DNA from: Babesia bigemina
Taxonomy: Eukaryota
Length of the DNA: 64,000 nucleotides
Assembly (NCBI RefSeq): GCF_000981445.1
Contig: NC_027218.1
Span: 806,001 to 870,000 of the forward strand
Direction: 5' to 3'
The position numbers were made by a program, and so were the translations under genes. Below the pieces are notes generated by a model. That model was not told the DNA's origin. It did no database searches and saw nothing but the letters and a program-made list of their open reading frames with translations. Shown in pieces: positions 46,261 to 64,000 of this stretch. Position 1 is the stretch's first letter. Every line of letters starts with the position of its first letter.

Positions 46261-47676
46261 GTAAATCTTTTGGGTAGTGGAACAGGTTTATTCTCAAAGA
46301 ATGCGCCTGGTTGTTAGGTGTCGAGGCAATCATGGGCACTAATTGTACAAAACACCGAGTAAAGGGATAGTCTATCACGACATTGCCATGACATTTTATA
46401 CCAGGTATCATGGTTTGTGCCTACTTAGTTGCAAATAATAATGAGTATTAGCTGTCACATGACTCACGTAACACTTTAGTGAACCTACGAATGCAGTAAC
46501 ATAATGTAGAATAATATGTAATTGCGAGTGGTTGCCATGAGTTGGCTTCTTATTATTGTGTTATCTCGTCTTATAGTGTGCTATGTGGCTACGTGCCTTG
46601 GGCCGGTTTTCGATTTTGCGGGGCTGCTGCTTCACGATGATGCCGGTTGCGAGATCCACGTCGGTCCGTTGCCGAGCGTCACTGGTGCCACCTGTATCAC
46701 CAATCCTGTCTGGGCGCCAGGGTCGTTCACAAAGAAGTGATCACCTTGAACCACCATTTCGCCTATCAGATAGGCCTGTGCCTATAACATATCATCTGGC
46801 GTATCTATTCCCCTTTCGGCTTCTTCACCACGTCTTCACACCTGCTGTATCTCAGTCTTGACATAGAGGCATTGGTTGGTAACCCTGGCTTCCACGATGA
46901 TCGTCGCACTCTGCTTCCTATTCGGATGGAATTCAGCTTAGTAACGCTCCTTGTCCTTCTCCATGTTGAGCGTCTTGTCCTCGGCAATCCATTGTTACCA
47001 TCGTCATTCACCTACTCCTCACTGCCGTTCTGCCAGTATGGTCTTTTGCAGTTCCTTTTATATTCACTGTTATTCAATGTTACACTCCGAATTCTCCATA
47101 TTAACGTCATATTCCTATAACACGCAGCGTAGATTCCACTACTTGTGAAGGCAGCAAAGAGTCAATTAACCGGGAGATATCTCGCCTCGTTTTTACAACA
47201 TGCTGCTATTCAGATGACTGCACTGCACCATTCCATTTGACGTTTCGCGAATGTATCCTCTCTTGTATTGTTGGCGTATGGCAGCAGTGGGGCGTACCAG
47301 TAATTGCGCAGAGGCAGTGTAGAATTTGATGCGAATATTAACTCGCAGCTTGCATCACCTCCGGCTGTTTCATAAGGAAGTTGAACATTGGAGTGTAGTT
47401 GGGAGGTCTGACGTCACCTCCGAAGTGGGTTATAATTTCGAGCTGTCTGGGTACTGGCAGCTGGGATTAGGTGAGCGAAGTGGATGCTAGTTTTGTCGTG
47501 AGTTTCAAATACGCCGTCAATAGGGTATATGCGCAAGTAATGTAGTTTGGAGCACTGAGAGAAGAGTTTGCCAGCCTTCAAGTGCTTGTCGCATGTTTGC
47601 AGGAGTTGAGTGTATGCAACCTCAAATTAGTGGTGGGTTGCTTGAGGTCGCACTCACGTTAAGTTTACGCTTCTGA

Positions 47677-50600
47677 ATGATGGCGCCTAAGAAGCTCACT
47701 GACTGCCCTGAAAATTTAAGGGAGGCTATCGACTGGTTGATACAGGTGAAAAATGGAGGTAATGGTAGCGGCCTTGATAAGCTGGGCAATGCTTTGAAAA
47801 TATTGATTGGTGAGGCTATTCAGAAGGCTAAGGATAGTAATAAACATACGGCAGATAAGCTTAGGTGCGCAAAAAATGATACTTACGACCGCCCTTATTG
47901 TAAAGAACTTGACGAAAGAATTGCTAAGGCTAATGTGGAATTGAAGATTTCTAAAAGTGTTCAAAATTTTGATAAAACTAGCAGAGATTCATTATCTGCC
48001 GACATAAAGCGATTCGAATCCCAAAAAGCGGATTGTGTTAAATCCCATTACATGGATGACCAAGGTATGAACGACATTCAGAATAAAATTAGCCAGGCTG
48101 ATGAGGTAATTAGCAAGCTTGGAAATGTATCTAAGGAACTTACAAATGAAGATAATACTAATATTCTTTGGAGGCTTTGTGATGGCATCGAGGCATTCTT
48201 AGGGTATGCTGCCGGCAATTACACGGGCAATGGCATCGTGTATGGCGATTGTGACCGTCTCCGTGACGCTGTTTTAATGTTCTTGAATGGCGTATTAGTG
48301 ACTGTGAAGGATGATGAAAATTTTAGGACATACGTTCTCAATGGTGGTGACATAAGTAAGCTTGTCGAAAATAAAAGTGGTAATGGACGAACGGAGTTCA
48401 ATTTGGTCATTAGTAGTGTTAGGTCCATGCTATCCCTGTGGGATGAAATGTTGACTGCGAGGACCAATAAGATTCTGTACGATATAGAAAGCTTTAAAGA
48501 TGGCATAGAGCATTGTTATCATAATATTGATAAACAACAAGGTAAGGGATGTATGGCGATGCACGCTTCATTCATGAGGTCTGTTGAAATGCTTAATCGT
48601 ACTATATCCGAAATTAGATGCAAAAATGATGGATATGCTGGAGTTGATAAAAATCTTCGGAGTAAATTAGACGTTCCATTTGGATATATCGATGAGGGTG
48701 TTAATATGTTGATAAATTCTGCGAACAATGATGGGCTTATAAAAGCCGTAGAAATGATTCAAAACATGTTTAACACATTGCCAGACGAACTTGAAAATTT
48801 TATAAGGGAGAGAGTCATCAGTACAATTAGCGATCACAGTGACCATGTTGAAGAATTAAAGAAATATATTAACATGCAGATTGATAATTATCGGAATAGA
48901 TTTGTGCAGGAACGCCTTTCCGTAGTAACCAGGGATTTGGAGATGGCTGTTGTCACATTTAGTAAAAATGCGTATAATCAGGGCGGTTTAAAAAATGTGG
49001 AAGTCGGTAACGCTATAAATGTTATTCAACAAATGTTAGAGAATGTAGACAATAATGTAAAAGATGAAGTTACTTTGAATGCTCAGAATGCTGACACACA
49101 AATCGCGTTGATAAAAAAGGCGCTTAATACAAAATCGCAGCTCGGTTTTACCGATGCGTTAAACGGTTTGAGTGAAGCGGTCGGTGATCCCGGTGAAATA
49201 TTTAATGAGAAGCATAAAAACGATTTGAAGGCGATCGTTATCAAAGCTCAGACGGATTTGAAGCAGGCTGCGTCTCGCGCCGAAGAAAATGCCAAGAACT
49301 TAGGCGGCTTAAGGAATGTAAAGGTCGCGGAAGCTATTCAAGTTATTCAGCAAAACTTGGGCAGGGCAGATCGTGTTACCAATATGGAGCTGTTGATTAA
49401 TTTGAAAAAGGATATCATGGATCACCAAGTTCGGCATATTATGGATGCTCTCAATCCGGATAAACCATTGCCAGGTGTTGTAAAGCGTTTACAAAGTTTA
49501 AATAGTATTATTGAGGAACCGCAACAAATATTTGACAGAGATCACAGAAACCGATTGGAAGAGCTGGTTGCAGCCACCGAAAAAGAATTCCTGGGTGCTT
49601 TAAATCAGGCTCAGTTATACACAACATGTACGAATTTCGGGTTGAAGAAGAAAGTTGACGAAATTTTCGAGTTGGTTTTGAAGAATGTCAAATCTGGCAA
49701 AATTCTGATTTCAGAGATAAAATCTTCGATCACACCGGCGCTTAAGAAGATTGGTGAAGGCATAACGGAGAATTTTCAATCGGGTAGCAATAACATATCA
49801 TCCAAACTACGCACGCTAGAGACGTCAATTGCTAACGCAATAGAAAGCAATTTTGAGCGCAAACTTGTGACCGAGATAACTGAACATGATTTCAATGGTT
49901 GGTTCCACAGCTACATGTCTCACGTACTCAAAGAAGCCAACGAAGTAATTAGCAAGGCCGACAAAGCTTATCAGCTTGTGTCTGAGCAGTTGGGTATGAT
50001 TAGTTCGGCGGTTAAGCATATTAAACAGAAAGCCGAAAGCGGAACTCTTAACAGTGTGATTTCTGGACTAGAAATTCAATTTGCCCCAATCTATCTATCC
50101 ATCGACACTAGTTCTTTTTACGAGGATGACCGGAAATCACGTCGAGCGTATTTTGACGATCTTAAATCTCATCTAAAGAACACGCTCAATATTCTCCAAG
50201 TCGCCTACAATAATGGTTACCAGAGTGCAGCCAAGACCTACCTCAGCGAAGCGATAAGTAAGATTAAGGCGGCTGTGGAGGAGGCGGAGCGACAGTATGG
50301 GGATGCGGTTGTAAGTGACATTAGTAGTATTAAAAGCAAGTTAAATAAGATAGTTGGCGATGTGTTTACCAAATCGGATCAGAGAGAGGCACTGCAAACA
50401 TTATTTGACAGGGATTTCGATAGTTTGGAAGACAAAGTAACGAGCAACTCCGCCTTCAATGATGATTATATCGCCCGTAAACAATGTTTCGAGAGCCTCA
50501 AGGCATTAATTAAAGATGCCGTAGAAAACCTATCCATCATTTACAAAGAGGCCTATCAAAGCTCGGCCAATACATATCTAAGTAGGGTCATTAAGGCTAT

Positions 50601-53600
50601 TGAAGATAAGGTTAAGGAGGCTGAAGGTACCTATGCGTTGGCGGTGCATATAGAACTTGAGAAGGTTAAGGAAAAGTTCAAAGAGATTACTGAAGAAAAT
50701 ATTAAAGATAAAGAGTCGAAATATGAGGAAAATCAAGACAGGAAAAAAAAACACACTTTAGGAACATTGTTTGATAAGCCTTTTCAAGATTTGCAAACTG
50801 CCGTCTTAAAACATTCCGCGTTCAAAAAAGATGCAGATTGTCGTAAAATGTGTTTTGAACATCTTAGGGCGTTGATTAATAACACAGTAAAAACTTTGAT
50901 TAAGGCTGCGAAGACGCATGATACTTGTGCATTAAAGGCAGAAGAGTATCTTGGAAAGGCATTTGAAGATGCTAAAGGCAAGATCAATACGCTTGGTGAC
51001 AGCGTCAAACATAAAGTAAAAGAAGCGTGTGATAGAGTTATTGCTGAAGTTTGTGCAATGCAGGCTGCGCATCACAAAGCTGACTTGGCGGCTTTGAAAT
51101 CTCTTGTGCAGAAACAACGTGATAACATTTTCAATATCGTTAATGAGGACTTGAAGACCGGGATTAAAGGTTTTTTACAAATCCTGAAAAGATGGTTTGA
51201 CATAAAAAGCGATCAGCTAACTACGGTACAAGACCTAAATCGTCTTTCCGGAGAGTTCAAAGACCTTTACGATAATCTGTACTCTTACGTTAAGTTCCAA
51301 CATGACGGCTTAGAAGTGGAAGTCGATAGTGAGGAAGATGCTTCTCAACCACAAACTCAGGTCCCTCCTCTCCAAGCGGTGCCAACTCCGATGGCCTCTG
51401 GTGGTTACAAAGCGCGGCCAGCTATGGCAGCGGTGACGTCTCAGACTCATGGCAAAAGCCAAGGTAAACCAGAACTCCAGAATTCCGGTCGTGCAGGATA
51501 TTTGCGTCCTGTTAAACGTGCAGATAAGTCGGTTTCCAAGGATACCATTGCTACATACCTTGTTGGGCTCGAGTATCATTCTCGAAAACTTTATAATGCA
51601 CTCACAGTCGGCAACTTCACTCACCAGTCCGCAAACATATGTCACGATTTTGCGAAGTTCCTCGAGTCAATGCGTCCTTTGATGTTCGGAAGGCAGGACA
51701 ATCCCCTGCTTGACATAATCAAATCCGGACTTAAGTCTTTCCTCGCTGAACTTGGGAAGGCATACATTTCGACATACTGCGGCGCGGCGCATATGTATGA
51801 TTGGAATCTCAATGGCAGGAACTGCGCCAAAGTGTTTATGACTTTGCTGGAGATACTGAAAACAGATTTCGATGAACTTCATGAGAAATGTGGTGAGAAC
51901 GGCGTGTGGAATAATAAAACTATTTGTGTTCTTGCGGGCAGTAATAGCTACAATGATCTTGGTTTATGCCTTAAGCGTTTCGGTTACGGAGTACCCAGCA
52001 AGGATGGGAAGCAGGACAACGAACTTCAGTGCAAGAGTAATATGAATGGTAATGAAATCTTCACGAAACTAGTACAACAAACCGTTACAGTAAAAGACGA
52101 TTACACTTTAATGACCACAATCGAAAACCTGTCCAAATGTCTTGCCACCTACTACCGTGTTCGTCACTACTCCACATTACAATCCAAGACGTATCCATTA
52201 TCCGTATACCAAATGCTTAATTGGCTTAGCGGCTTTCCAAACAATCCGGCATATGACGAATTGACGCTCAACGGCTTTAGTGCACTGTTCGATAAGCCTG
52301 ATGAGGAAGCTGCCGATGACACCAATGAAGGTGTTATCGCTGTTGCAGGTGATGCAGCAGAAAATAGTATGCACGACCTTCCATTCAAATTCGCAGATGA
52401 TGACGTTTTGGAGGCATACCCAGAGAACATCACACCGACGACATTAAGAGATACCCTTGCAGCTGTTTGCGCTAACTCACACAACGTTCTTACTTCCATC
52501 CTCGGTCACGGCCATAGCAACGGTATATACGCCTGTGAGTTCAACACAAATTCATTGAGCTTATGGTACCCTGCTGATACGAACAGTTTAGTTTGTATGT
52601 TATTTGACATCCTCAAACGTATCCACCACCAACTTTACATACTGTATCACCAGTGCTCATATGAGACTGATCTGGGTGGCTGGCGTGACTGTTGGTATGG
52701 CAGGGACGTCGGCGGTTCAGACTGGAGGTGCAATAGGCTTCAGTGTGCTGGCCAAATGGGTGACCAAAAGCACAACCAAACATGTGACCAAAAGTGTAAC
52801 CAAAGTGCTGGGTGCGGCCTCAAGTCACCTTTGCAATCTTACCTCGAAGATGGCTTGCAAGGGTACCTACCGCATCAAATCAAATACGAAAAGGGCAAAG
52901 TCGACTGCGCACTGAAGGACCACTCTGGTGGTCCCTGTAAGTCGCCTATTGGTTTCCCCGACATCAGCGTTACGGCATCGCACCGATATATTGGTAAGCA
53001 CATTCACGTTGCGCTTGCTAGTTTGTTCGGCGAGAAATCGTCTCCACTCAGCCAACTTTGCGCCCAGCTAAACTGTCTCCTGCCAAGCGCGCCGAAAACG
53101 CTGGATGACATGTTTGGTTTCTACTTAAATTTCATCGGCGGGTGGAGTAGGAAACAGAAAACTGCATTTGAGCAGACTGTGAGAGATGCAAACTTCAAAC
53201 GTACCAATGCAACGTTAGACATCTGTCCAGTATTCGAAAGCATTGAGCACAAGCCTGCCAAGCCCCCAGGTCAGAAAAATAGCCACATCACTGGAGATCT
53301 GTATTCACTTGTGAAATGCAGGTATAATGAAAGCAGCACTGTGGCTCATCCGTGTGGCCCGTATCTGAGACCCTCGTGCTATTATGCGAGCGGCATCTTT
53401 GCTGATAAGCACAATGACAAATATCTCTCTTGGATTGTGTACTTGACGGAGACATTCCACCGGTTGTTGAAGCAGCTATACGAGGAGTGTAACGGTAATT
53501 GCGGCGGTGAGAGACCTAAATGCCGTATTAGTAAGTGCGTTGAAAAATGCGCAGCCACAACGTCGCCCCTGTCTCCTGAATCTACTCACAAAGCATCATG

Positions 53601-54015
53601 CAAATCAATTGTTCATTGCAAATATACGCGTCCTACGTTCTACAAATTCGGTTTCATATTCAGGGATTGCAAAATCCTTTCCGACCAGTCAAGTAGACGC
53701 ACTTGCCAAGACTTTTGTACGGCATTGAATCATGTCATCAATGATAAAGAGACGGTGGGAGCAGCGCTTGCAAAATTAATTTATGTCACAATTCCAGAAT
53801 ATCTTCTCGAAATCAGAAAACCGTTCATGCTATTAACCCTCACTCTCTGGCTCCTCTCCTTGTTGTACCTCCTCCACATCATGGTCATCCGCCTCGACCT
53901 GCTCCACATCAAATCGCATTTGAGATCACCGTCATCACATCGCATCGCCGCGCAATCACTGCTGGCCGCCGCACGTGTCGGCAAACTTGCCCAGATCACC
54001 TACCTGCAACCTTGA
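47677..54015 (+). CDS. ves1: Large VESA1-family variant erythrocyte surface antigen (2112 aa)
   Basis: N-terminal LTDCPENLREAIDWLIQ; LCDGIEAFLGY...YTGNGIVY; YISTY...CAKVF; GWRDCWYGR; SPLQSYLED; C-terminal TM plus IRLDLLHIKSHLRSPSSHRIAAQSLL tail. Confidence 0.92.
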   Translation: MMAPKKLTDCPENLREAIDWLIQVKNGGNGSGLDKLGNALKILIGEAIQKAKDSNKHTADKLRCAKNDTYDRPYCKELDERIAKANVELKISKSVQNFDKTSRDSLSADIKRFESQKADCVKSHYMDDQGMNDIQNKISQADEVISKLGNVSKELTNEDNTNILWRLCDGIEAFLGYAAGNYTGNGIVYGDCDRLRDAVLMFLNGVLVTVKDDENFRTYVLNGGDISKLVENKSGNGRTEFNLVISSVRSMLSLWDEMLTARTNKILYDIESFKDGIEHCYHNIDKQQGKGCMAMHASFMRSVEMLNRTISEIRCKNDGYAGVDKNLRSKLDVPFGYIDEGVNMLINSANNDGLIKAVEMIQNMFNTLPDELENFIRERVISTISDHSDHVEELKKYINMQIDNYRNRFVQERLSVVTRDLEMAVVTFSKNAYNQGGLKNVEVGNAINVIQQMLENVDNNVKDEVTLNAQNADTQIALIKKALNTKSQLGFTDALNGLSEAVGDPGEIFNEKHKNDLKAIVIKAQTDLKQAASRAEENAKNLGGLRNVKVAEAIQVIQQNLGRADRVTNMELLINLKKDIMDHQVRHIMDALNPDKPLPGVVKRLQSLNSIIEEPQQIFDRDHRNRLEELVAATEKEFLGALNQAQLYTTCTNFGLKKKVDEIFELVLKNVKSGKILISEIKSSITPALKKIGEGITENFQSGSNNISSKLRTLETSIANAIESNFERKLVTEITEHDFNGWFHSYMSHVLKEANEVISKADKAYQLVSEQLGMISSAVKHIKQKAESGTLNSVISGLEIQFAPIYLSIDTSSFYEDDRKSRRAYFDDLKSHLKNTLNILQVAYNNGYQSAAKTYLSEAISKIKAAVEEAERQYGDAVVSDISSIKSKLNKIVGDVFTKSDQREALQTLFDRDFDSLEDKVTSNSAFNDDYIARKQCFESLKALIKDAVENLSIIYKEAYQSSANTYLSRVIKAIEDKVKEAEGTYALAVHIELEKVKEKFKEITEENIKDKESKYEENQDRKKKHTLGTLFDKPFQDLQTAVLKHSAFKKDADCRKMCFEHLRALINNTVKTLIKAAKTHDTCALKAEEYLGKAFEDAKGKINTLGDSVKHKVKEACDRVIAEVCAMQAAHHKADLAALKSLVQKQRDNIFNIVNEDLKTGIKGFLQILKRWFDIKSDQLTTVQDLNRLSGEFKDLYDNLYSYVKFQHDGLEVEVDSEEDASQPQTQVPPLQAVPTPMASGGYKARPAMAAVTSQTHGKSQGKPELQNSGRAGYLRPVKRADKSVSKDTIATYLVGLEYHSRKLYNALTVGNFTHQSANICHDFAKFLESMRPLMFGRQDNPLLDIIKSGLKSFLAELGKAYISTYCGAAHMYDWNLNGRNCAKVFMTLLEILKTDFDELHEKCGENGVWNNKTICVLAGSNSYNDLGLCLKRFGYGVPSKDGKQDNELQCKSNMNGNEIFTKLVQQTVTVKDDYTLMTTIENLSKCLATYYRVRHYSTLQSKTYPLSVYQMLNWLSGFPNNPAYDELTLNGFSALFDKPDEEAADDTNEGVIAVAGDAAENSMHDLPFKFADDDVLEAYPENITPTTLRDTLAAVCANSHNVLTSILGHGHSNGIYACEFNTNSLSLWYPADTNSLVCMLFDILKRIHHQLYILYHQCSYETDLGGWRDCWYGRDVGGSDWRCNRLQCAGQMGDQKHNQTCDQKCNQSAGCGLKSPLQSYLEDGLQGYLPHQIKYEKGKVDCALKDHSGGPCKSPIGFPDISVTASHRYIGKHIHVALASLFGEKSSPLSQLCAQLNCLLPSAPKTLDDMFGFYLNFIGGWSRKQKTAFEQTVRDANFKRTNATLDICPVFESIEHKPAKPPGQKNSHITGDLYSLVKCRYNESSTVAHPCGPYLRPSCYYASGIFADKHNDKYLSWIVYLTETFHRLLKQLYEECNGNCGGERPKCRISKCVEKCAATTSPLSPESTHKASCKSIVHCKYTRPTFYKFGFIFRDCKILSDQSSRRTCQDFCTALNHVINDKETVGAALAKLIYVTIPEYLLEIRKPFMLLTLTLWLLSLLYLLHIMVIRLDLLHIKSHLRSPSSHRIAAQSLLAAARVGKLAQITYLQP

Positions 54016-54747
54016 TAAATCACCTCACCACCACTCACCTAACTCACTACCTAGCAACCCACCGCCTAACCTAATACTCACCAAAGTATATTACCTAATG
54101 CATACTCAGCAATTTGGCAGCCGATGTAGTTCATGCCGTGATAGGTTCGTGGTTTGGGATGTTGAGTTGTGAGTTGCCTGTGAAACGTGCCCACGCCCTC
54201 CCATGGTTTCAGTGGGCAGCGATGTTAGGTTATAAGGGACTAATGGAGGCTTATGACATAGTTTATGACTAGTGAAAGTGCGCCGTATGCAACGTGACTG
54301 TTTGGCGTGATAGCCATTATGTGCGTCGATAGGCAAAGAACGTCGACAGGGCAGTGCTATGATGGCCGGTGGACGGCGCAGTTAGGTGGCCTTGGTGGTA
54401 GCAGTGTAAATAATATGCATGTTAACCAAGTAATGTGGTTCACTAAGGCACTCGTTATGACGAAAATGTTATGACATTTAGAAGCAGCACTGGAAACGTT
54501 CGACGGTCTGTGGCAGATGGAGTTCGCTGCGCAACTGGCACCGGTATATCTGCACGTTAGTGCTAGGATACCGTCCACATGCGTTAACTCGGCAGTACAT
54601 TAGTGATGATAGCTACATAGTCGTGATGTAACCGGCGGTGCGTTGGATGGCGGTCAGCTGGGTGGTCGGAGCGCAGATTGTTAGGGGAGTGTCCGAGGCT
54701 GAGGGGAGTGATTCATGTTTGCAGGTTGAGGGGAGGAAGCGTGTAAG
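54016..54747 (+). repeat. Conserved ves-downstream spacer, copy A (inverted homolog of 61947-62701)
   Basis: Blocks shared with the reverse complement of 61947-62701: cacctcaccaccactcacctaac..acctagcaacccaccgcctaacctaatactc; gataggttcgtggtttggga; ggtggccttggtggtagcagtgtaaat; gtgtccg.ggctgagg. Confidence 0.9.
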
Positions 54748-55092
54748 ATGACTACTGGATGCCAGTGTCGTTTGCCATGCACTGGTAGCTGTAGATGCTG
54801 TTCATGGTGTTGTCCCACATGTAAGGATGAGACATCATGCGCAGCGTGCATAAGTTACAGGCAAGACCCACGCACTAGCGATCATGCTAGTTGCCCAAAG
54901 TGTAGGGTAGAGGAAGATAGCGAACCTTGTGACTGTCCGTGTTGTAAGACCTCTATCATTCCTTACATAATATCCGTCACCGTCATCATCCTCCTCGCCG
55001 TCTGCATCATGACCATGTTTCGTATTCGCCCGTTTCACAAAGTGCGCGATTTCTGCGCACAGAAAATGAACGGTTTGCGTCGCGCTCATTAA
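54748..55092 (+). CDS. Small Cys-rich single-TM protein, ves-linked family, copy A (114 aa)
   Basis: 17 Cys in the first 66 aa; TM IIPYIISVTVIILLAVCIMTMF; tail RIRPFHKVRD. A paralog lies at 61494-61946. Confidence 0.75.
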   Translation: MTTGCQCRLPCTGSCRCCSWCCPTCKDETSCAACISYRQDPRTSDHASCPKCRVEEDSEPCDCPCCKTSIIPYIISVTVIILLAVCIMTMFRIRPFHKVRDFCAQKMNGLRRAH

Positions 55093-56052
55093 TAAACTCC
55101 GACACTTCGTATTATCGCACTTAAAGCATCGTATGATGGATTAATAGAACGATGGTTGTCTAATAACGTGTTATTAAATGCTTCACAATAGTGCATCTGC
55201 GGGTGTTCAGCGAGACATAGCATCAAATGTGCATTGGCAAAGTGAACGGGATCAACCATCCTGTTCTGTTGTACGTATTAGTCGGACGCGTTGCGACGCT
55301 GCCCATTTGGTCGCAGAAGATCGCCGCACGTTTGCCAACCTACGCATAACACAGTACATGCAGCCTTGATACGTCATCTCATCCTAATGTCTTACCAAAT
55401 TTCCCACCTGCTACCTAATTTAATATCCGCGTCAAGTTTTTAGTTATTTAGGATGTTGTTTTGTGCGCTACTTTCAAGTCGTGGCTGCCTCATCCCACAT
55501 CATCAGTGGGCAGTGAAGTTACTTGAGTGACCTTCCATGTACGCAGATGAGTAGTGCCTTGCAAGATGTGGTGGTGCACCCGTTGTTAGATGAACGGATG
55601 GCGTGTTAGATGTATGGGCGTAAACGTCGTATATGCTCAGTTGACCAAGACTTGTGGAGAGTTATTTATTGTTTTACAGGATTGGTTGTAAAGTCCAATT
55701 GGTGAGAATGGACGTTGAACCCGGAACCTCAATTCACTGCGCTTGGTGGTGTCCTCGTATTCGTCGTCATCCATCACCTTGTATAGTATCTGACATCGAC
55801 CTGCAAGCAATTGCATATTTCCTTGGTTGACAAGACGTCGCTTCCACGCTTTGCTCATCAATTAACTTCAGTTGGCAAACAGGTCATGCAGAGTCGCATC
55901 GCAATGACAATGTGGACGCTAACGCAATAGTGTTGCGGTTCTCCAAAGCCTAACATTCTAAAACATTGCTGCAATATAAAATATAGTCGTAATTATCCTA
56001 TATAAACTGCAGCCTTTTCCACTTGCATAGCTCTATTGCCCAGTTCTATCAC

Positions 56053-56511
56053 TCATTGTTTGGCTTTCAAAAATATTAGGTCGGCCATTTTTTGCGATGA
56101 ACCACTGTTCTGGTCGTTGACAGTGTAACCGACCTTACGTAGGATTTCTGCTGTTTTCTTCCAGTCGAATGGACCATTAACAGATTTGTGTAACTCGGCT
56201 CCACTGGTGTCTTTCGTGTTTTGTGCGGCGGATTCTACTTTCTCCTTTCTCACTCTGCGCCACTCCTCTAAATCGCGTTGTGCCTTTTTCGTTGCTGCTT
56301 CCATAACCTCGGCCTCCTTCTGCTTTTTCGCCTCTATAGCCGCTTGAATGTCAACGCGCCACTTCTGCATGACGCTATTCTGCTGTGTGTGCTCGGAGGT
56401 AGGGAAACTTGAGCCAGTGTGACTTTCGTAACCTGGTGAACTCATATCTAGTTTGTTCGCATCGATCCCCCAAATGTCCTTAGACGCAGATCTGAACTCT
56501 TGTTGATCCAT
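56053..56511 (-). CDS. CLC: Clathrin light chain (divergent)
   Basis: Central helix QKWRVDIQAAIEAKKQKE...AQRDLEEWRR, then DWKKTAEIL and QKMADLIFLK, matching the CLC pattern (KWREE...A...L.EW...W..V..L...RM..L..LK). Confidence 0.7.
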   Translation of the reverse strand: MDQQEFRSASKDIWGIDANKLDMSSPGYESHTGSSFPTSEHTQQNSVMQKWRVDIQAAIEAKKQKEAEVMEAATKKAQRDLEEWRRVRKEKVESAAQNTKDTSGAELHKSVNGPFDWKKTAEILRKVGYTVNDQNSGSSQKMADLIFLKAKQ

Positions 56512-57816
56512 AGTGTTTACTTAGGTGTACGACCGGTCGTCGTTTGCCACCTATTGTTGTCAGTGAAACGACACAGGTCGCGTACTAATTATCCAGATGA
56601 CACGCTGACACAGGCAAAAGTTGGCGGTTCTTACTTTTATGCCTAAAGGTAACTTCAATAGACGTAGACGGTAGTTAGGGATATGTTCTACCTTTTCTAA
56701 TATCCCCTTAGCGAGTCATATACAGGGGCGCTTTATTAGTGTTGCTTCTACAAATACCAGGCGATTTAGTTTATAAAAGCGGCAGAATGCAATTTGTGGG
56801 TTCAATATATGTGGTGTTTAACCTGATTGTTACCTTTCACGTTAAGCCGTTTCGATCATACAGCCCTGGGGATGTGCACACCTGCACAGGTACACACCAG
56901 TGTAAGCAGAGATTCCGCGACACATTTGACCTTTTATGTGAAAACGTGCTTGATTCATATTAAAGGAGACACTAGGATGGATATAGCTTGTTGGGATTGA
57001 CGCTGCAAATGTGTAACGTGATACGCGCCTTGACACCGAGTAACGATGTGACTGTACCGTGCCAATTACGATGGCTTAATAACCACACTGTGACATTAAA
57101 AACAACATTACGCTTTTGTATCATGCAGCAACGCGGAAAAACAAAAAAGGTCCCATTTGTCTTCTTCGGGCTAAGGTGTATGGTAGGCTTGACTTGAATT
57201 AACGTATTGTTCCCTAATTACGTTCTTGGACCACTGTGTACAAAAACACAAATATAAGCGCCAATTAACAAGGATTTGCAGTATAGCGGATGGGTCTGTC
57301 TTACGCTGCTTTAGGTTATGATGCATAAGTCACGTGATTGATCGCAATATGCGTAAAATACTACCACAAACAGTTATATACCGACAGAATGGTTGTCATA
57401 TTGCAATGCAGACATATTTTACTGCAAATGTGTACGCTGTGGTAACCTAGCATATACTGTGGAAGCCTTGCCTTCTCCATTCTTCGATTGCGCGTAACAT
57501 TGCGCTACACAACTCACGCAGTAGTTTGTTGCTTGCAATTTTGAATATATGTGCTACATGTATTGCGGTGTCTGGTGCTATACACTAGACATCCCAAATG
57601 TACTTACGGCGCTAGCACCGCTACAACGATAAAACGCCATGCAACCCTCAACCAGTGTACGGATGTTGTGATTCATTGGACGTATTTTATAATCCTTCAT
57701 ACGGTAACAGAGAATCTAATGTAGGCGCAAGGGTTATCGACGAACACATCTCAACACATTTTGCTTTCCGCATCTAGCGGGATAGCCTCCGGGCGTTGTT
57801 AGACTATATCGCAACA

Positions 57817-58722
57817 ATGTTCATGGGTTCATCGAGCTTCATTTCAATGGGTAAGGCCCTCAAGAAGAAGACTCCAAGTACGAATGCGGATGCTCGACGA
57901 TTAATGTTTGTGGATTCCTCAATCAAAGCTGAGTTTGTGGAAATCGTACAGCTTCCCAATCCAACTAACCTCTTAGATGGCGCTTTATATGCTGTATTAG
58001 ATGGGACGATTTATCTGATTCGCGGAATACTTCCTAATGTCCATCCTGTGAGCTTGTTTGTGGATAACACGATTTTGAATCAGTCGTTTCTGGCGACATT
58101 TAGGTTTGACGTCATTTTTATTTTCACATCCATTCTGTTCTTGGCGCCAGATAAGTTCATGTCTATGCCACAGCGTATATACGAGTTGTATCGATCCGGC
58201 CTCAATGAGTCCCAAGGGCACGGCGCATTGGAGGCAGGCGCCTTTGCACTCTGGAACAATAATGTGGACAAAATTCAAGAGCGCATACGGTATCTGTGCG
58301 ATATTGCCAACCCGGGTGAAGCTAAGGACGTAGTCATTAAGCCTAATGTGTCTAAATTCCAGGCTATGCTGGAATACAAGGTACAATCTCTGGAGAAGGC
58401 TGTTCGAAGCTCAAACATAATTATGGGATCGTATTGCCAATCAAAAGAGACATCTAACAGTGAACATGTACGCAAGCATTACATCACTGTTCAAGATGGA
58501 AAATTGCGGTCGTTTGCTTGGTCGTTAATATCGTCCATGCTGAATGCTGAGGCACGAAACCGTCTCGTACCGTCGAACGGGTCGATGATAGACCATCAGG
58601 CAATAGACGATGTCAATCTGTCGAGAAAACCTGTCATAACATCGAGTAAGAGGCCGAAGCAGCGCAAGATAGCGGTAGCCAGTGGCACCGCCTCTATCAC
58701 TTCATTTTTCAAGCCTGTATAA
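57817..58722 (+). CDS. RNASEH2B: Ribonuclease H2 subunit B
   Basis: VQLPNP...YAVLDGTIYLI...SLFVDNTI...TFRFDVIFI (Ydr279-like N-terminus) and a C-terminal PIP box GTASITSFFK. The start may instead be 57847. Confidence 0.75.
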   Translation: MFMGSSSFISMGKALKKKTPSTNADARRLMFVDSSIKAEFVEIVQLPNPTNLLDGALYAVLDGTIYLIRGILPNVHPVSLFVDNTILNQSFLATFRFDVIFIFTSILFLAPDKFMSMPQRIYELYRSGLNESQGHGALEAGAFALWNNNVDKIQERIRYLCDIANPGEAKDVVIKPNVSKFQAMLEYKVQSLEKAVRSSNIIMGSYCQSKETSNSEHVRKHYITVQDGKLRSFAWSLISSMLNAEARNRLVPSNGSMIDHQAIDDVNLSRKPVITSSKRPKQRKIAVASGTASITSFFKPV

Positions 58723-58873
58723 AACTTCCGTTTTTAAACATTCAGCCTGGATAGATGTAGTTACATGCTTGAGGCAACATAGAACCGTGTTACTTAGAAA
58801 CTTAAATGGCCCACTTTCTAATTTGTCTACTGTGCCGTGAGTGGTTACGTGTGGCATTAGTCCGTGTTAGAGT

Positions 58874-60060
58874 TTACTCTAGGCTGCGCTTCGCAATCCA
58901 TCGGTATGATCTGAGGGTTCCACGACACGTGGCAACTTGGTTGCCAGGTGTTACACGTTCTTGGCGTTGTTGAATGTTGTGCATTTCTTCGACGAAATCA
59001 TCCACTGCAGATTCCTGTCCTGAAGCTCTGCTGCCTTCGCATTGTCTTCCAGAATGAGTATTCCACACGTTAGGTACAATGACGACACCTCGATGTCCAG
59101 CTTGGGGTCCTCACGCTTGGCATACAGAACCTTATGAGTTGATTTTACGTGCTTTCTGTTGTATAGCCATTTGTTTTGGGCCAACCTGAGGTCCCTGACG
59201 CTCTTGTACGTCGTGTACTCCACTCCGAATTCCATTCCATATCTTCCTTCCAAGTGCATCTTGATGTGAGATATGTACGCGTATGTGTCGCGAAAATGCT
59301 GCATGATCGCAGCTCTCCTGGTTGACGTCACCTCGTCTGCTGAAAACGTCAACCACAGTCGTAGCAGCATGGCTTCCGCTCTGAATACCATGCTGTGGAG
59401 CTCTCTCCCCATCTCTTTCCGGGGGAGGTAGAGCCGCTGTGTGTTCGCCCACTTCTTGTGTCCGGACTTCTTGGTTATTATTCTCCGTACTGCCAGGTCA
59501 ATCTTGTCGAAGTGCGTGGTCTACGTGGAGATTACGCCGATGTAGTAGTTAGTGACGCTGATGGCGTACTGGTTGATAGCCATCGAGAGGTTTTTCCCCG
59601 ACAGCTTTGACGCAGCCAGTAGCTCCGTTCTTCTGCAGTTTTCACCATGCTGCCAAACGTATCATTGCTTGTCCCTGAGATTGCATAGTTTGTGTGCCTG
59701 GTAGTCGTCGAAGGCGATTATTTTGAAAGCGTCAACACAGAACAAGTATGAGATGTAGATGCATAATGAGTTGTGGCGGTGACCTTGTGGATGCCGTTTC
59801 TATAATTAAGGCTAGTTGGCGTGAAATGTCGGATTACGAAATAAATGGGCGGTGTCTTCAGTGTCATTTGTGATTCGTAAAAACCGAGTCAGTTAGGATT
59901 GTAGCGATGACTAACAAAAGTAGGGTGGAGTAGCACTGACCCAATGAGGTATGGGTGCAAGTTAATCAAGGTATGGATAGGCAAAGTTATTGTTGTTTTT
60001 GCATAAGCTTGCAAGGCGTTTCGTCTCAAACGCTTACGTCAACCAGATGACATGGGGGTG
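58874..60060 (-). mobile_element. Decayed non-LTR retrotransposon (R2/R4-group-like: RT, thumb, CCHC knuckle), pseudogenised
   Basis: Ordered remnants on the minus strand: W(V)DV.AFET (~60022-60045), PPIYFVI, SYLFCVDAFKIIA (59713-59754), LSGKNLSMAINQYAISVTNYYIG (59536-59604), frameshift, RLYLPRKEMGREL (59398-59436), QDRNLQW..KCTTFNNAKNV*HLATK (58936-59022). Confidence 0.8.
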
Positions 60061-60273
60061 TGGAGAGACGAGGACCAAAAGTCAAAGGGGTAAAAGCGAA
60101 GTTGAAAATTAATACTCACCACAATTATCCTAAGCTAAGCCATGAGAGTGAATGCGATGGTCGTTAATGTTTTTAAATTGAATGTCTCATCGCTACAGAA
60201 GCGCTTTGTGGGCTGCATAAGGCTACGAGACAACACTGATCGTGGCAACGAATAGTTAGGTGGTGATGTTGAA

Positions 60274-60422
60274 AGCACGGAAGGGCTCATGCTTTGAGGC
60301 GAATGTGGTACCCATCCCTTGCTTATTGGCGGAAGGCCACCAAGGAATCTGGTGAGCTAGGTTCCAGAGCACGGAAGGGTTCACATATTTGGGCGAATAC
60401 AGCACCAATCCCTTGCTTATTG
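60274..60422 (+). repeat. Imperfect direct duplication, 94-bp period
   Basis: agcacggaaggg...ggcgaat...atcccttgcttattg occurs at 60274-60328 and again at 60368-60422. Confidence 0.75.
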
Positions 60423-61493
60423 ATCAAACAGCGGACGCAAAGAACCAAGAATATGAGGAGTGGGAGACCAATAAATACGCCAAGAGGGGCTGCCCAGTTA
60501 ACCGTCATCTTCCTTACAAATCAGTTCAAAACTCTAAGAATTAACGAACCACCTACCTTACGTATCGCATCGCCACTTCAAGTGTTGATATATAAGTGTC
60601 TTATAACCCGTTCATGCGAACGTGACGGTCATTACGCTTATCTTACATACCATGATGATCCAATAGCACCGCATGCATCGGAGAGACATGGTGATGATGC
60701 GGCGCGAATAAGATGCAGATCGAATCCACGACATTCAACAGCGCAAGGTTACTGCCACTCATCACACTCCACTATTCTCACCCTTCCACAACCGTTGAAC
60801 GTCTACTTTGTGCCATACCACTGGTGCAGTTGTGGGCGCATAACTGAGCTATACAGCGATATTAAGATATCAGTATTTACCAGAATGTCACATCCGCGTG
60901 CCAAGTAACTAATCTGTCATGTGGTAATAACTTCGGGCAATATACCGGTCCGTCTCATCAGTGGGCCCATTAGCATTTTTATCCACATGTTCCGGGGACT
61001 CATGATATCGCACACATACTATCCATTCACCTGAGACATAAGTCACTGTATATGCTTCCTCTCAACCAATACACAGTAATGGGAAACTCGAAACGTGTGA
61101 CACATTATACGGCGATTTCGTTAGGTGAAAGGCTGAGCTGGCGGTGGCAACATCAAGGCAGCAATGATCATCGTGGTGGTGAGTGACAAACGTTGCCATG
61201 AGGGTGACTGGTGAATGCACGATATCCTGCGAGAAAGGATGAGGAGCGTATCGATGCCGCCGAGAACTACGTACAACAGGTCACCGTGGTTAATCCTGTT
61301 CAGCTTGCAAATGCTTACCTAATGCCATATGTCGATGTAATTTGTGAACGTCTCAAGGGCAACTACAGTGTACAATTATGAAACATTTAATAATACGACA
61401 TTGGATACGCAGTGTACTGTTTGTTCACATTACTGTTAGCTGAGTGCGATAATTAAAATTTCCAAGTTGTTTAAAGAGTGCGACACAGAAGGT

Positions 61494-61946
61494 TCATTTG
61501 CAATTTAAAATATCGCAGACCTTGTGGAACGGGCGGATGCGAAAGACGATCATGACACATATAAGGAGGATGAAGATGATAATGACGATGACGGGAGCGA
61601 TGACGGTGCTGGAAGGGCTCCCACCGGGGGTGGCGAAAACACTGGAGGGATGCTCACTACCGGTGTAAGAGGCGATATAAGTGGAAGATGAGGTAGGGCG
61701 TGATGTTCTACTTTTACAACATGGACATTCACAGGTGGGCTTGGTACACTCACTGCATTTTTTCGTACATCCTGGTGGTTTGCATTCGTCCTTTGATGGG
61801 CCCGTTTTGCGCTGATGATAGAAGTTTTGACAGTGTGAGCATCCGTAACCCTGACATTTTTCACAACACCAGAAACAGCAATTACACAGCTTGAGCGATA
61901 GACATCCATTATGACACAACGGACATGGCACCCCTCCATAAACCAT
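61494..61946 (-). CDS. Small Cys-rich single-TM protein, ves-linked family, copy B (150 aa)
   Basis: 19 Cys in the first 77 aa (CNCCFWCCEKC...CECPCCK), Ser/Thr/Pro linker, TM VIAPVIVIIIFILLICVMIVF, tail RIRPFHKVCD. Confidence 0.75.
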   Translation of the reverse strand: MVYGGVPCPLCHNGCLSLKLCNCCFWCCEKCQGYGCSHCQNFYHQRKTGPSKDECKPPGCTKKCSECTKPTCECPCCKSRTSRPTSSSTYIASYTGSEHPSSVFATPGGSPSSTVIAPVIVIIIFILLICVMIVFRIRPFHKVCDILNCK

Positions 61947-62701
61947 GTTCCCTCTTCTACTTCGTCATCAACATGCAAAACCATGAAGCACGTGCCTCAG
62001 CTTAGGAAACTCTTTCCATCAACCTGCAAACCATGAAAAACGTACCTCAGCCCCGGACACTGACTGTCTCTTATAGGCGCTCCACGTGCTACCTGGTAAC
62101 CGCTACCTATAGCATCGCCTATTCCATCACAGCTGAAGTAGTACCCAGTTATAGCATGTGGACGGTATCGCACCAGTGGCATGCAGGTCAACCGGTACCA
62201 GTTGAGCAGTCAAGACCACCCGTCACTGTCCAAATTGCGAACGCCGATTCTGAATGGCATCACAGTTGTGACATAATAAAATCATATGTAAGCTATATCG
62301 CTCGATTAATACGTTTCTCATTTACACTGCTACCACCAAGGCCACCGAACTCCGCCGTCCACTGGCCATCACGTCAGATTGCCCCGGCACATCCATTGCC
62401 CAGCAACGAACATTGCTAACATTGCAACCGGTATCCCAACCACCTTATAGTAATTCACGTAGCACGGTACTGTCCCTGCTGCAGCGTTGGTGACAAATCA
62501 CCTAGCTTCACGGTGCGATGACGCAGACGCCTCTCACAAGTGACGCAAACCTCAACGTCCCAAACCACGAACCTATCGATGCATGATCTACATTAACTGC
62601 CATATTGCTGAGTATACATTAGGTAATATATTTGGGGGAGTATTAGGTTAGGCGGTGGGTTGCTAGGTAGTGGGTTAGGTGAGTGGTGGTGAGGTGGTCT
62701 A
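61947..62701 (-). repeat. Conserved ves-downstream spacer, copy B (inverted homolog of 54016-54747)
   Basis: Same conserved blocks as copy A, in the same order relative to the ves stop and the Cys-rich ORF. Confidence 0.9.
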
Positions 62702-64000
62702 TCAAGGTTGCAGGTACAGCACTTTGTTGAGTGCTTTAACACGTGCAGCGGCGAGTAGTGATTGCGCGGCGATACGATGTGATGAGGGAGAGTGCAAATG
62801 CGATTTGATGTGGAGCAGGTCGAGGCGGATGACCATGATGTGGATGAGGTACAAGAGAGAGAGGAGCCACAGGGCGAGGAGAAGGTAGGAGAAGGGTTGT
62901 CTTATTTCCCATAAAAACTTATCGCACTCGTCAAATAGTTTGCTGAAATATTCGGAGTGTAGTACATTACTCAGTTGGGTACGGAAGTCGAAGCACGTTT
63001 TTTTCTTAGAGTTCAACTCTTCTGCATCATCATACGTTAGTCCGTATCTATACAGCGTAGGCAATACACCTTTGCAGCTTACTATTGAAGGGCATTGGCA
63101 ACCAAATCCGATTGACGAGGGGTTAAGGAAACCATGCTGACCACGCTTACAGTTATTGCTGTTTAGGCATACACGGCACCCCCAGTCCCGGCAAAATATG
63201 TCTTGAAAATCCTTGAGCAGTGATTCAAGATAGCAATGGAATTGCCATGGTAGGTAGACAGCCCATGATAGGTAGAGGTCGGAATGCTTGGGGGCATGAT
63301 GCCTGTAGTAGTCCGTATAAAGTGAGAATAGGTAAGGTGCGCTGCTAAGATTGTTGTGCATACATATACCCCGCGTAGAAAGGTGCATAAGGTGATGGTA
63401 GACGCATTTAGAATGTTGCACCGTGTCTGCACTACCGTATGCATCGCTAAATGCATCAGTAAACGCGGATGTATTGCCATATAATTTCATGGACAGTTTC
63501 TTAATGGATGTTTCGAAATTTGTTTTGATAACGTTTGTATTTGCCTTATTACTACCATGGAATTTATTAACTAATGATGATACAAAACCAAAGTGTTCAG
63601 GCAACGTAGTAGGAGGTCTTGGAACAAGGCAGAAAAGAGAGGTTATATCCACATTGACGAAGAATTCACCTATAATTCCACTCAGATCCGAACCGGTACG
63701 CGCGCTACCTGAGAACTCCCTGAAGCCAAGGGGAGTGAGACACGGCATCCCATTCTGTGATGTGGGACACGTAAAACATTTGGGCTGACATCCAATGGAG
63801 CGCAGTTGATGAGGCAAATAACCGAGCAAACAGTCACTTAGATAGGACATGAGCGGTGACTGAGATTGGCAATCAAATTTGTCCGTTGAATGGTCGTTGC
63901 ATTGCCAGTTACAGGGTTGGGCACTTTTACCGTATTGACAATCGGCCCAACCGTAATGTACAGCGCTGATTTTACATTGGGTGTGCAAGAATCTGAGGAC
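62702..64000 (-). CDS. ves1: VESA1-family gene, 3' portion (runs off the window end)
   Basis: The frame is open to base 64000. GWADCQYG, SPLMSYLSD, CLTPLGF, YLSWAVYLP, CPSIVSCKGVLPTLYRYG, then TM plus IRLDLLHIKSHLHSPSSHRIAAQSLLAAARV..YLQP. Confidence 0.92.
   Translation of the reverse strand, partial: VLRFLHTQCKISAVHYGWADCQYGKSAQPCNWQCNDHSTDKFDCQSQSPLMSYLSDCLLGYLPHQLRSIGCQPKCFTCPTSQNGMPCLTPLGFREFSGSARTGSDLSGIIGEFFVNVDITSLFCLVPRPPTTLPEHFGFVSSLVNKFHGSNKANTNVIKTNFETSIKKLSMKLYGNTSAFTDAFSDAYGSADTVQHSKCVYHHLMHLSTRGICMHNNLSSAPYLFSLYTDYYRHHAPKHSDLYLSWAVYLPWQFHCYLESLLKDFQDIFCRDWGCRVCLNSNNCKRGQHGFLNPSSIGFGCQCPSIVSCKGVLPTLYRYGLTYDDAEELNSKKKTCFDFRTQLSNVLHSEYFSKLFDECDKFLWEIRQPFSYLLLALWLLSLLYLIHIMVIRLDLLHIKSHLHSPSSHRIAAQSLLAAARVKALNKVLYLQP

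Follow-up and report, generated by a model that had tools for sequence, protein, structure and literature searches.

If piroplasm genomes were essentially free of transposable elements, as a preliminary description of this locus assumed, a fossil retrotransposon among the ves genes of Babesia bigemina would stand alone, and the question would be how it came to be there and what, if anything, survives of its family. The premise is contradicted by the report of LINE-like elements in B. bigemina, B. ovata, B. divergens and Theileria equi (Rodriguez and Makalowski 2022, PMC9141347; this and the papers below are cited from the portions of their text that were available), and the fossil is not a lone one, since intact copies of the family exist in B. 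bigemina. The piece in our window (i.e., the whole 64,000-nucleotide stretch of contig NC_027218.1 that was analyzed) is a mere fossil pointer to that intact family. The explanation that we favor, and regard as quite probably right, is that the window holds a dead internal fragment of an intact family that likely moves by target-primed reverse transcription (TPRT), is likely still or was recently mobile, and likely goes back to an old transfer from microsporidia. What was observed in its favor is homology, intact motifs, copies that are nearly identical, a predicted fold like that of R2, proximity to ves1 genes and nesting in trees.

The main fragment (58935..59637, minus strand) carries the thumb, linker and zinc knuckle, i.e., approximately amino acids 901-1134 of a 1,347-aa ORF, in a single frame with two stops, and its reverse transcriptase (RT) palm and 3' end are absent. 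When P0005, an intact 1,347-aa B. bigemina protein, was compared with the window by tblastn, it gave an ungapped HSP at 59643-58921 (aa 899-1139; E 2e-119) in which 204 of 241 residues (85%) are identical; the 37 residues that differ include the two stops (59523-59521 and 58953-58951) and two knuckle cysteines. The first stop (59521..59523, minus), in the thumb region, is a sense codon at the same place in a contig of sequencing run X1. The C-X2-C-X7-H-X4-C knuckle (58933..58983, minus) is broken by the loss of its second and last Cys and by a stop before the His. The ends of the fragment are set by X1 contigs, one marking a DNA break at 59637 and another beginning at 58935; these contigs are about 93% identical in neighboring genes, and none crosses a fragment junction, which leaves them uninformative on the junctions. 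Because RVT_1 occupies aa 640-881 of P0005, the fragment starts past the RT palm and ends within the zinc knuckle.

The peptides quoted in the preliminary description all occur in the six-frame translation in the order given, and the tblastn match to P0005 identifies several of them (the one beginning LSGKNL, RLYLPRKEMG, QDRN..W and the broken knuckle) as true homology; that description had read across frameshifts, whereas the real homology is frameshift-free. A search with the read-through peptide recovered longer proteins that all contain RVT_1 (34 of the 34 matches listed), led by B. bigemina proteins of 1,266 and 1,347 aa (85% identity, E 4e-129) and followed by those of B. ovata (67%), B. 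caballi (42-46%) and B. divergens (42%). Queried by itself, the fragment matched no RT in Pfam or PDB, as expected because the palm is missing. Judged from its sequence, the main fragment is a decayed internal piece of a Babesia non-LTR retrotransposon, an ordinary fossil; that it is a non-LTR remnant, as first proposed, is borne out, and its family carries a C-terminal restriction-like endonuclease.

The stretch just upstream (59638..60300) is not part of the element. Its GC content is 0.44, against 0.505 in the main fragment. We compared 59644-60300 on both strands with a profile of the family and with five individual proteins by frameshift-aware alignment, with 60 shuffles each: the 12 scores ranged from 25 to 39.5 and each was matched by 10 to 60 of the 60 shuffles, whereas the real fragment reached 733 and its shuffles at most 45. 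The three supposed RT motifs in this stretch (at 59644-60060), W(V)DV.AFET, PPIYFVI and SYLFCVDAFKIIA, thus score like shuffled DNA (12 of 12 tests within the shuffle range) and are chance likenesses. Had this DNA come from the insertion that left the 85%-identical piece next to it, the homology would stand out plainly. With them falls the proposed Asp-to-Ala change in the catalytic site, there being no RT palm in which it could lie, and in place of a deletion of RT motifs 6-7 the whole palm is missing. Neither inverted nor rearranged pieces of the element were found in 59644-60300 or 58500-58920. Beyond this stretch lies a 61-aa ORF with a hydrophobic stretch (60323-60508, minus), followed by a decayed partial tandem copy at 60274-60422 (a 55-nt repeat with 94-nt spacing and 78% identity).

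How the fragment has evolved since its insertion can be approached through its differences from the X1 contig. The 27 listed differences fall on the three codon positions in a ratio of 9:7:11, versus 3:4:13 for the 20 listed in the control, the clathrin light chain gene (56053..56520, minus; Pfam PF01086, E 1.2e-6), a contrast that is suggestive at most (Fisher p 0.14). This spread would be consistent with, rather than proof of, neutral drift. The differences also bunch in two patches, 59465-59476 (6 in 12 bp) and 59512-59533 (8 in 22 bp), as might result from error-prone repair or patch conversion. No direct repeats were found flanking the fragment, which lacks both ends. The fragment would be what is left of an older copy inserted at this locus, both ends of which were later removed by deletion or recombination while the remainder drifted neutrally. 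TPRT writes the 3' end of an element first; that the 3' end is nevertheless gone points to deletion or recombination at a later time.

The family has left another, far older fragment at 46635..46991 (minus), which retains, in frameshifted form, the endonuclease and C-terminal tail (aa 1184-1347). It was detected by tblastn (46991-46635; E 2e-6), its score of 107 was reached by 0 of 200 shuffles, and a profile without the Babesia-specific tail missed it. It lies on the opposite strand about 690 bp upstream of the ves1 start at 47677, in or near the likely promoter region of that gene. We considered whether the two fragments might be halves of one insertion and rejected this, one being 85% identical in a single frame and the other a heavily frameshifted remnant.

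That the main fragment might be a contaminant or a chimeric join in the assembly is scarcely credible. No independent read set across both junctions was found, which would leave room for such an artifact; against it stand the 85% identity to a multi-copy chromosomal family of B. bigemina with relatives in three further Babesia species, the degraded rather than pristine state of the fragment, and the second fragment 12 kb away. The family is multi-copy in four Babesia species and T. equi, and with a GC3 of 0.69 it is genuine Babesia DNA, as had been supposed. A scan of metagenome contigs with P0005 gave 70 pattern matches and no relatives.

The intact members of the family show what the fossil has lost. 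Full-length ORFs in B. bigemina comprise at least eight accessions with four distinct 1,347-aa sequences, which are 99.7-100% identical and 2-4 aa removed from P0005, a near-identity that may also stem from gene conversion, duplication of ves islands or assembly duplicates (14 of the 24 RT genes are unplaced). One such copy is an intron-less single ORF of 4,044 bp. In P0005, RVT_1 (E 5e-30) includes WVDVMKAYD at 713 and YIDD at 818, so the catalytic aspartates missing with the palm from the main fragment are intact at the level of the family, and the C-terminus contains the knuckle (C1119-X2-C-X7-H-X4-C), RHN at 1146, RPD at 1201, EIGIT at 1218 and KxxKY at 1234. All six motifs (RT aspartates, CCHC knuckle, RHN, PD, ExG and KxxKY) occur in 8 of the 9 long B. 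bigemina proteins checked, the ninth having a C-terminal frameshift, and in 5 of 5 full-length T. equi proteins, which are 98.2-99.5% identical. These T. equi copies (P0100, P0229, P0234, P0236 and P0237, at least five being full-length) are a second candidate active family. Relatives in B. ovata (79% identical) and B. caballi (55% identical) keep the RT and endonuclease motifs, lacking only the canonical knuckle. Pfam reports RVT_1 alone, and AP endonuclease, integrase and LTR-type domains were not found in the family proteins.

The predicted fold resembles that of R2. An AlphaFold2 model of the intact protein (pLDDT 86) gave R2 proteins as its top seven Foldseek matches (E 8e-29 to 5e-24), ahead of LINE-1, and the predicted fold aligns with R2 through the C-terminus (VIA Z 32.2 for model residues 301-1130 against R2Tg). 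The family shares with R2 (R2Bm, 8GH6; R2Tg, 9DOU/9NL3) the single ORF, RT, thumb, CCHC knuckle and C-terminal restriction-like endonuclease, and R2Bm and R2Tg are the best structural matches of the modeled Babesia protein, yet at 14-17% identity. In contrast to R2, neither N-terminal C2H2 fingers nor signs of rDNA targeting were seen in it, and its copies are dispersed in multigene islands. An N-terminal W-x19-W helical block is present: its low-confidence model (pLDDT 65) yielded matches all at or below Z 5.5 with no Myb fold among them, no zinc-finger or Myb Pfam match occurred among 24 family proteins, and the ESM Atlas returned only unnamed, arthropod-rich clusters (0.84-0.90). The family likely moves by R2-style target-primed reverse transcription.

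RNA-seq reads from blood stages and kinetes point to transcription in blood stages, with 23/35/31 reads for a full-length copy versus 0/0/0 in kinetes and 632/550/640 for another RT gene versus 8/26/1 (PMC9806345), although such transcripts may be read-through from neighbors. The 24 RT genes of B. bigemina are dispersed and their neighbors differ. We regard the family as likely still, or very recently, mobile. The alternative is an immobile family whose copies and fragments were spread passively by gene conversion or recombination of ves loci. Such spread could draw on the frequent rearrangement of ves1 loci (PMC4066756), and both the main fragment, whose two missing ends would be natural in a recombination product, and the many copies on short unplaced contigs would fit it. 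It would not lead one to expect neighbors and insertion points that differ between copies, catalytic motifs kept over 1,347 aa (with RT and endonuclease motifs also kept in the 79% B. ovata and 55% B. caballi relatives), or a young set of its own in T. equi, and we judge it improbable.

The fragment had been described as lying inside a ves locus, and this holds in part. It does lie between two converging ves1-type genes (4.9 and 3.1 kb away), a 2,111-aa ORF (47677..54015, plus; blastp match, E 4e-82, to the VESA portion of a ves1ba-labelled gene; no match to Pfam VESA1_N) and the 3' end of a second (62702..64000, minus; blastp E 3e-62, with the conserved C-terminal membrane tail), in company with the clathrin light chain gene. 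Its direct neighbor, however, is a housekeeping-type ORF (57778..58722, plus) that weakly resembles RNase H2 subunit B (Pfam Ydr279_N, E 0.015, under the cut-off) and is covered by a 93%-identical X1 contig.

Across the family, proximity to ves genes is pronounced in B. bigemina. The RT gene cluster of this species has 25 genes (PMC5660447, supplement 2); leaving out the Myb-like CDR94896 and 14 genes on unplaced contigs, 10 remain, and all 10 lie no more than four genes from ves1, nine within three and six within two. The distances in genes to the nearest labelled ves1 are 1, 1, 1, 1, 2, 2, 3, 3, 3 and 4, which are upper bounds for neighbors among the matches listed. With at most 170 ves1 genes among 4,457 B. 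bigemina genes (PMC4066756), the upper-bound binomial probability of this closeness is 7e-6, or 1e-3 if ves2 is counted. Gene models join an RT ORF to VESA sequence in three species, and one B. ovata copy interrupts a VESA-like ORF, the two sides of which abut when aligned to another VESA (867|870). Counting against specificity for ves, one full-length B. bigemina copy sits between two 6-Cys genes, and of four further B. ovata loci none has a ves1-cluster neighbor among the matches listed, three being beside MFS-labelled or 6-Cys expanded families. No 28S rDNA insertion was found, the chromosomal copies being among protein-coding ves, 6-Cys and housekeeping genes.

Elements with a restriction-like endonuclease are often site-specific, which raises the possibility that this one recognizes a sequence inside ves genes as R2 recognizes 28S rDNA. 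The closeness of all 10 chromosomal genes and the RT-VESA fusions would suit such a site. Nevertheless, where insertions could be assigned a position on VESA (one in B. ovata, one in B. bigemina), they are about 870 codons apart and share no site, copies adjoin 6-Cys genes and other families, both fragments in the window are outside ves coding sequence, and Pfam and the low-confidence model found no N-terminal Myb or zinc-finger domain. Young full-length copies also occur in T. equi, which is not known to have ves genes. We consider a ves-specific site very doubtful, and strict targeting of ves in general is unlikely, given the varied insertion sites and the B. ovata copies next to other gene families. 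The crowding in islands of ves1 and other lineage-specific multigene families would instead reflect a loose preference for such regions and persistence where DNA is expendable, and not one target sequence. Since ves regions are poor in coding sequence (PMC4066756), survival in a safe haven may explain much of the closeness to ves1.

Where the family came from is a separate question. The preliminary description had noted a microsporidian likeness, and homology searches and trees uphold it: the named relatives outside piroplasms are mostly microsporidian, of nine genera among the matches listed, the remainder being mite, 'Octopus sinensis', mislabelled bacterial-bin and many unnamed metagenome proteins. 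The microsporidian elements (Vairimorpha, Nosema, Hamiltosporidium, Nucleospora, Astathelohania, Enteropsectra and others) are 33-45% identical from RT to endonuclease, have the N-terminal helical block in common with the Babesia elements and belong to the same clade; the latter differ in that they stand on a long stem branch, have a longer disordered N-terminus and use GC-rich codons. R4/Dong is a candidate label for this family, in view of RepeatMasker labels of microsporidian LINEs, which possibly concern other proteins than those matched here. The LINEs so labelled ('Dong-R4') are those of N. bombycis and Microsporidia sp. MB (PMC3614468, PMC13174016).

The trees (of the 'quick' SH-aLRT kind, with a long Babesia stem) were built after 13 proteins that were degraded or fused, and a further row of low coverage, had been removed ahead of the 111-row tree; later trees used 44 of the 111 rows and 30 chosen rows. 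The five Babesia elements form one clade (support 100) within a 99-supported group of T. equi and microsporidian elements, outside of which further microsporidian elements branch. Monophyly of the microsporidian elements is rejected (p-AU 0.015, for a group named after the tree was seen). Identity to microsporidian elements is 42-45% over 430-680 aa versus 26-29% to the insect-type outgroup, and the nearest named animal element among the matches listed is a Bombyx protein at 29%. House-dust-mite proteins, at 37%, and 'Octopus sinensis'-labelled proteins belong to the wider clade.

We lean toward transfer of the family from microsporidia or from a shared pool. The donor may be another lineage, because most close relatives are unnamed metagenome proteins and because mite and 'Octopus sinensis' proteins share the clade. 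Vertical inheritance in Apicomplexa, or an origin from arthropod hosts with the microsporidian likeness reflecting sampling, is less likely, although it should be taken seriously. The mite proteins, the 17 Eimeria elements called LINE R2 by MGEScan (PMC9141347) and the fact that the homology searches scored only part of the candidates speak for it, as do the long residence indicated by GC3 and a clade of Babesia plus T. equi that is not rejected (p-AU 0.46; support 29 in the 30-row tree). The gap between microsporidian and insect-type identity speaks against it, as do the absence of any tick-labelled or other apicomplexan protein among the matches listed (34 of 34, the best 120 of 128 and the best 120 of 394) and the report that B. 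bovis, other Theileria and Cytauxzoon are without transposable elements (PMC9141347). Under transfer, the element GC3 of 0.69 and the 48-79% identity among Babesia elements point to an old acquisition. B. ovata has two deeply split subfamilies (P0006/P0053 at 79% and P0076 at 48% identity to the B. bigemina protein), which places the division of the family early within Babesia. Close relatives under Octopus sinensis scaffolds and bacterial metagenome bins (P0104, P0105, P0108, P0113, P0021, P0123 and P0133) may be parasite DNA in those assemblies.

The existence of the family is already known, and it seems uncharacterized. LINE-like elements make up 0.97% of the B. bigemina genome, the B. divergens copies are called LINE R2 by MGEScan, and the choice between one and two invasions was left undecided in the available text (PMC9141347); in B. 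caballi an expansion of RT genes is reported (RT gene cluster 03, with repeats R=9 and R=13; PMC10463595). These have the same species pattern as our family and are very likely identical with it; unlike the present analysis, the available portions of both papers contain no anatomy, analysis of intact copies, ves link or phylogeny. We saw nothing on the family in the available text of PMC4202319, PMC3505731, PMC6537212 and the main text of PMC5660447, and a search of open-access literature turned up no paper on the intact copies, on an association with ves genes or on kinship with microsporidia. These aspects (i.e., intact copies, crowding at ves islands and a likely microsporidian origin), like the insertion into a VESA-like ORF, seem to be unpublished.

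Apicomplexans are mostly without mobile DNA, and no characterized active non-LTR element was found for them in the literature. If an intact and transcribed family is indeed present in B. bigemina and T. equi, it would act in these parasites as a live mutagen and provide them with reverse transcriptase, and transfer from microsporidia to piroplasms, if true, would be a jump from parasite to parasite across eukaryotic supergroups. Crowding at ves1 islands links the family to the biology of immune evasion. According to an earlier proposal (PMC4066756), ves1-alpha derives from a reverse-transcribed ves1-beta transcript, and the family is a candidate source of the enzyme for this step. The boldest version, in which an active retrotransposon of microsporidian derivation prefers antigenic-variation islands, disrupts and reshuffles ves genes and supplies the RT for intron-poor ves1 retrocopies, is a long shot.

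Several features of the surrounding ves region were noted in passing. The 3' flank of the ves1-type genes is present as an inverted duplication (54021-55323 and 61220-62697, 64-69% identity), which contains after each gene a small Cys-rich ORF with a single membrane helix (54730-55092, plus, and 61494-61964, minus). A high-depth family of X1 contigs on 61874-62407 indicates that this 3'-flank unit is likely repeated elsewhere. Along the window, GC content is 55-63% across the housekeeping genes at 7-37 kb and steps down to 38-50% at 44-64 kb, where the ves region lies.
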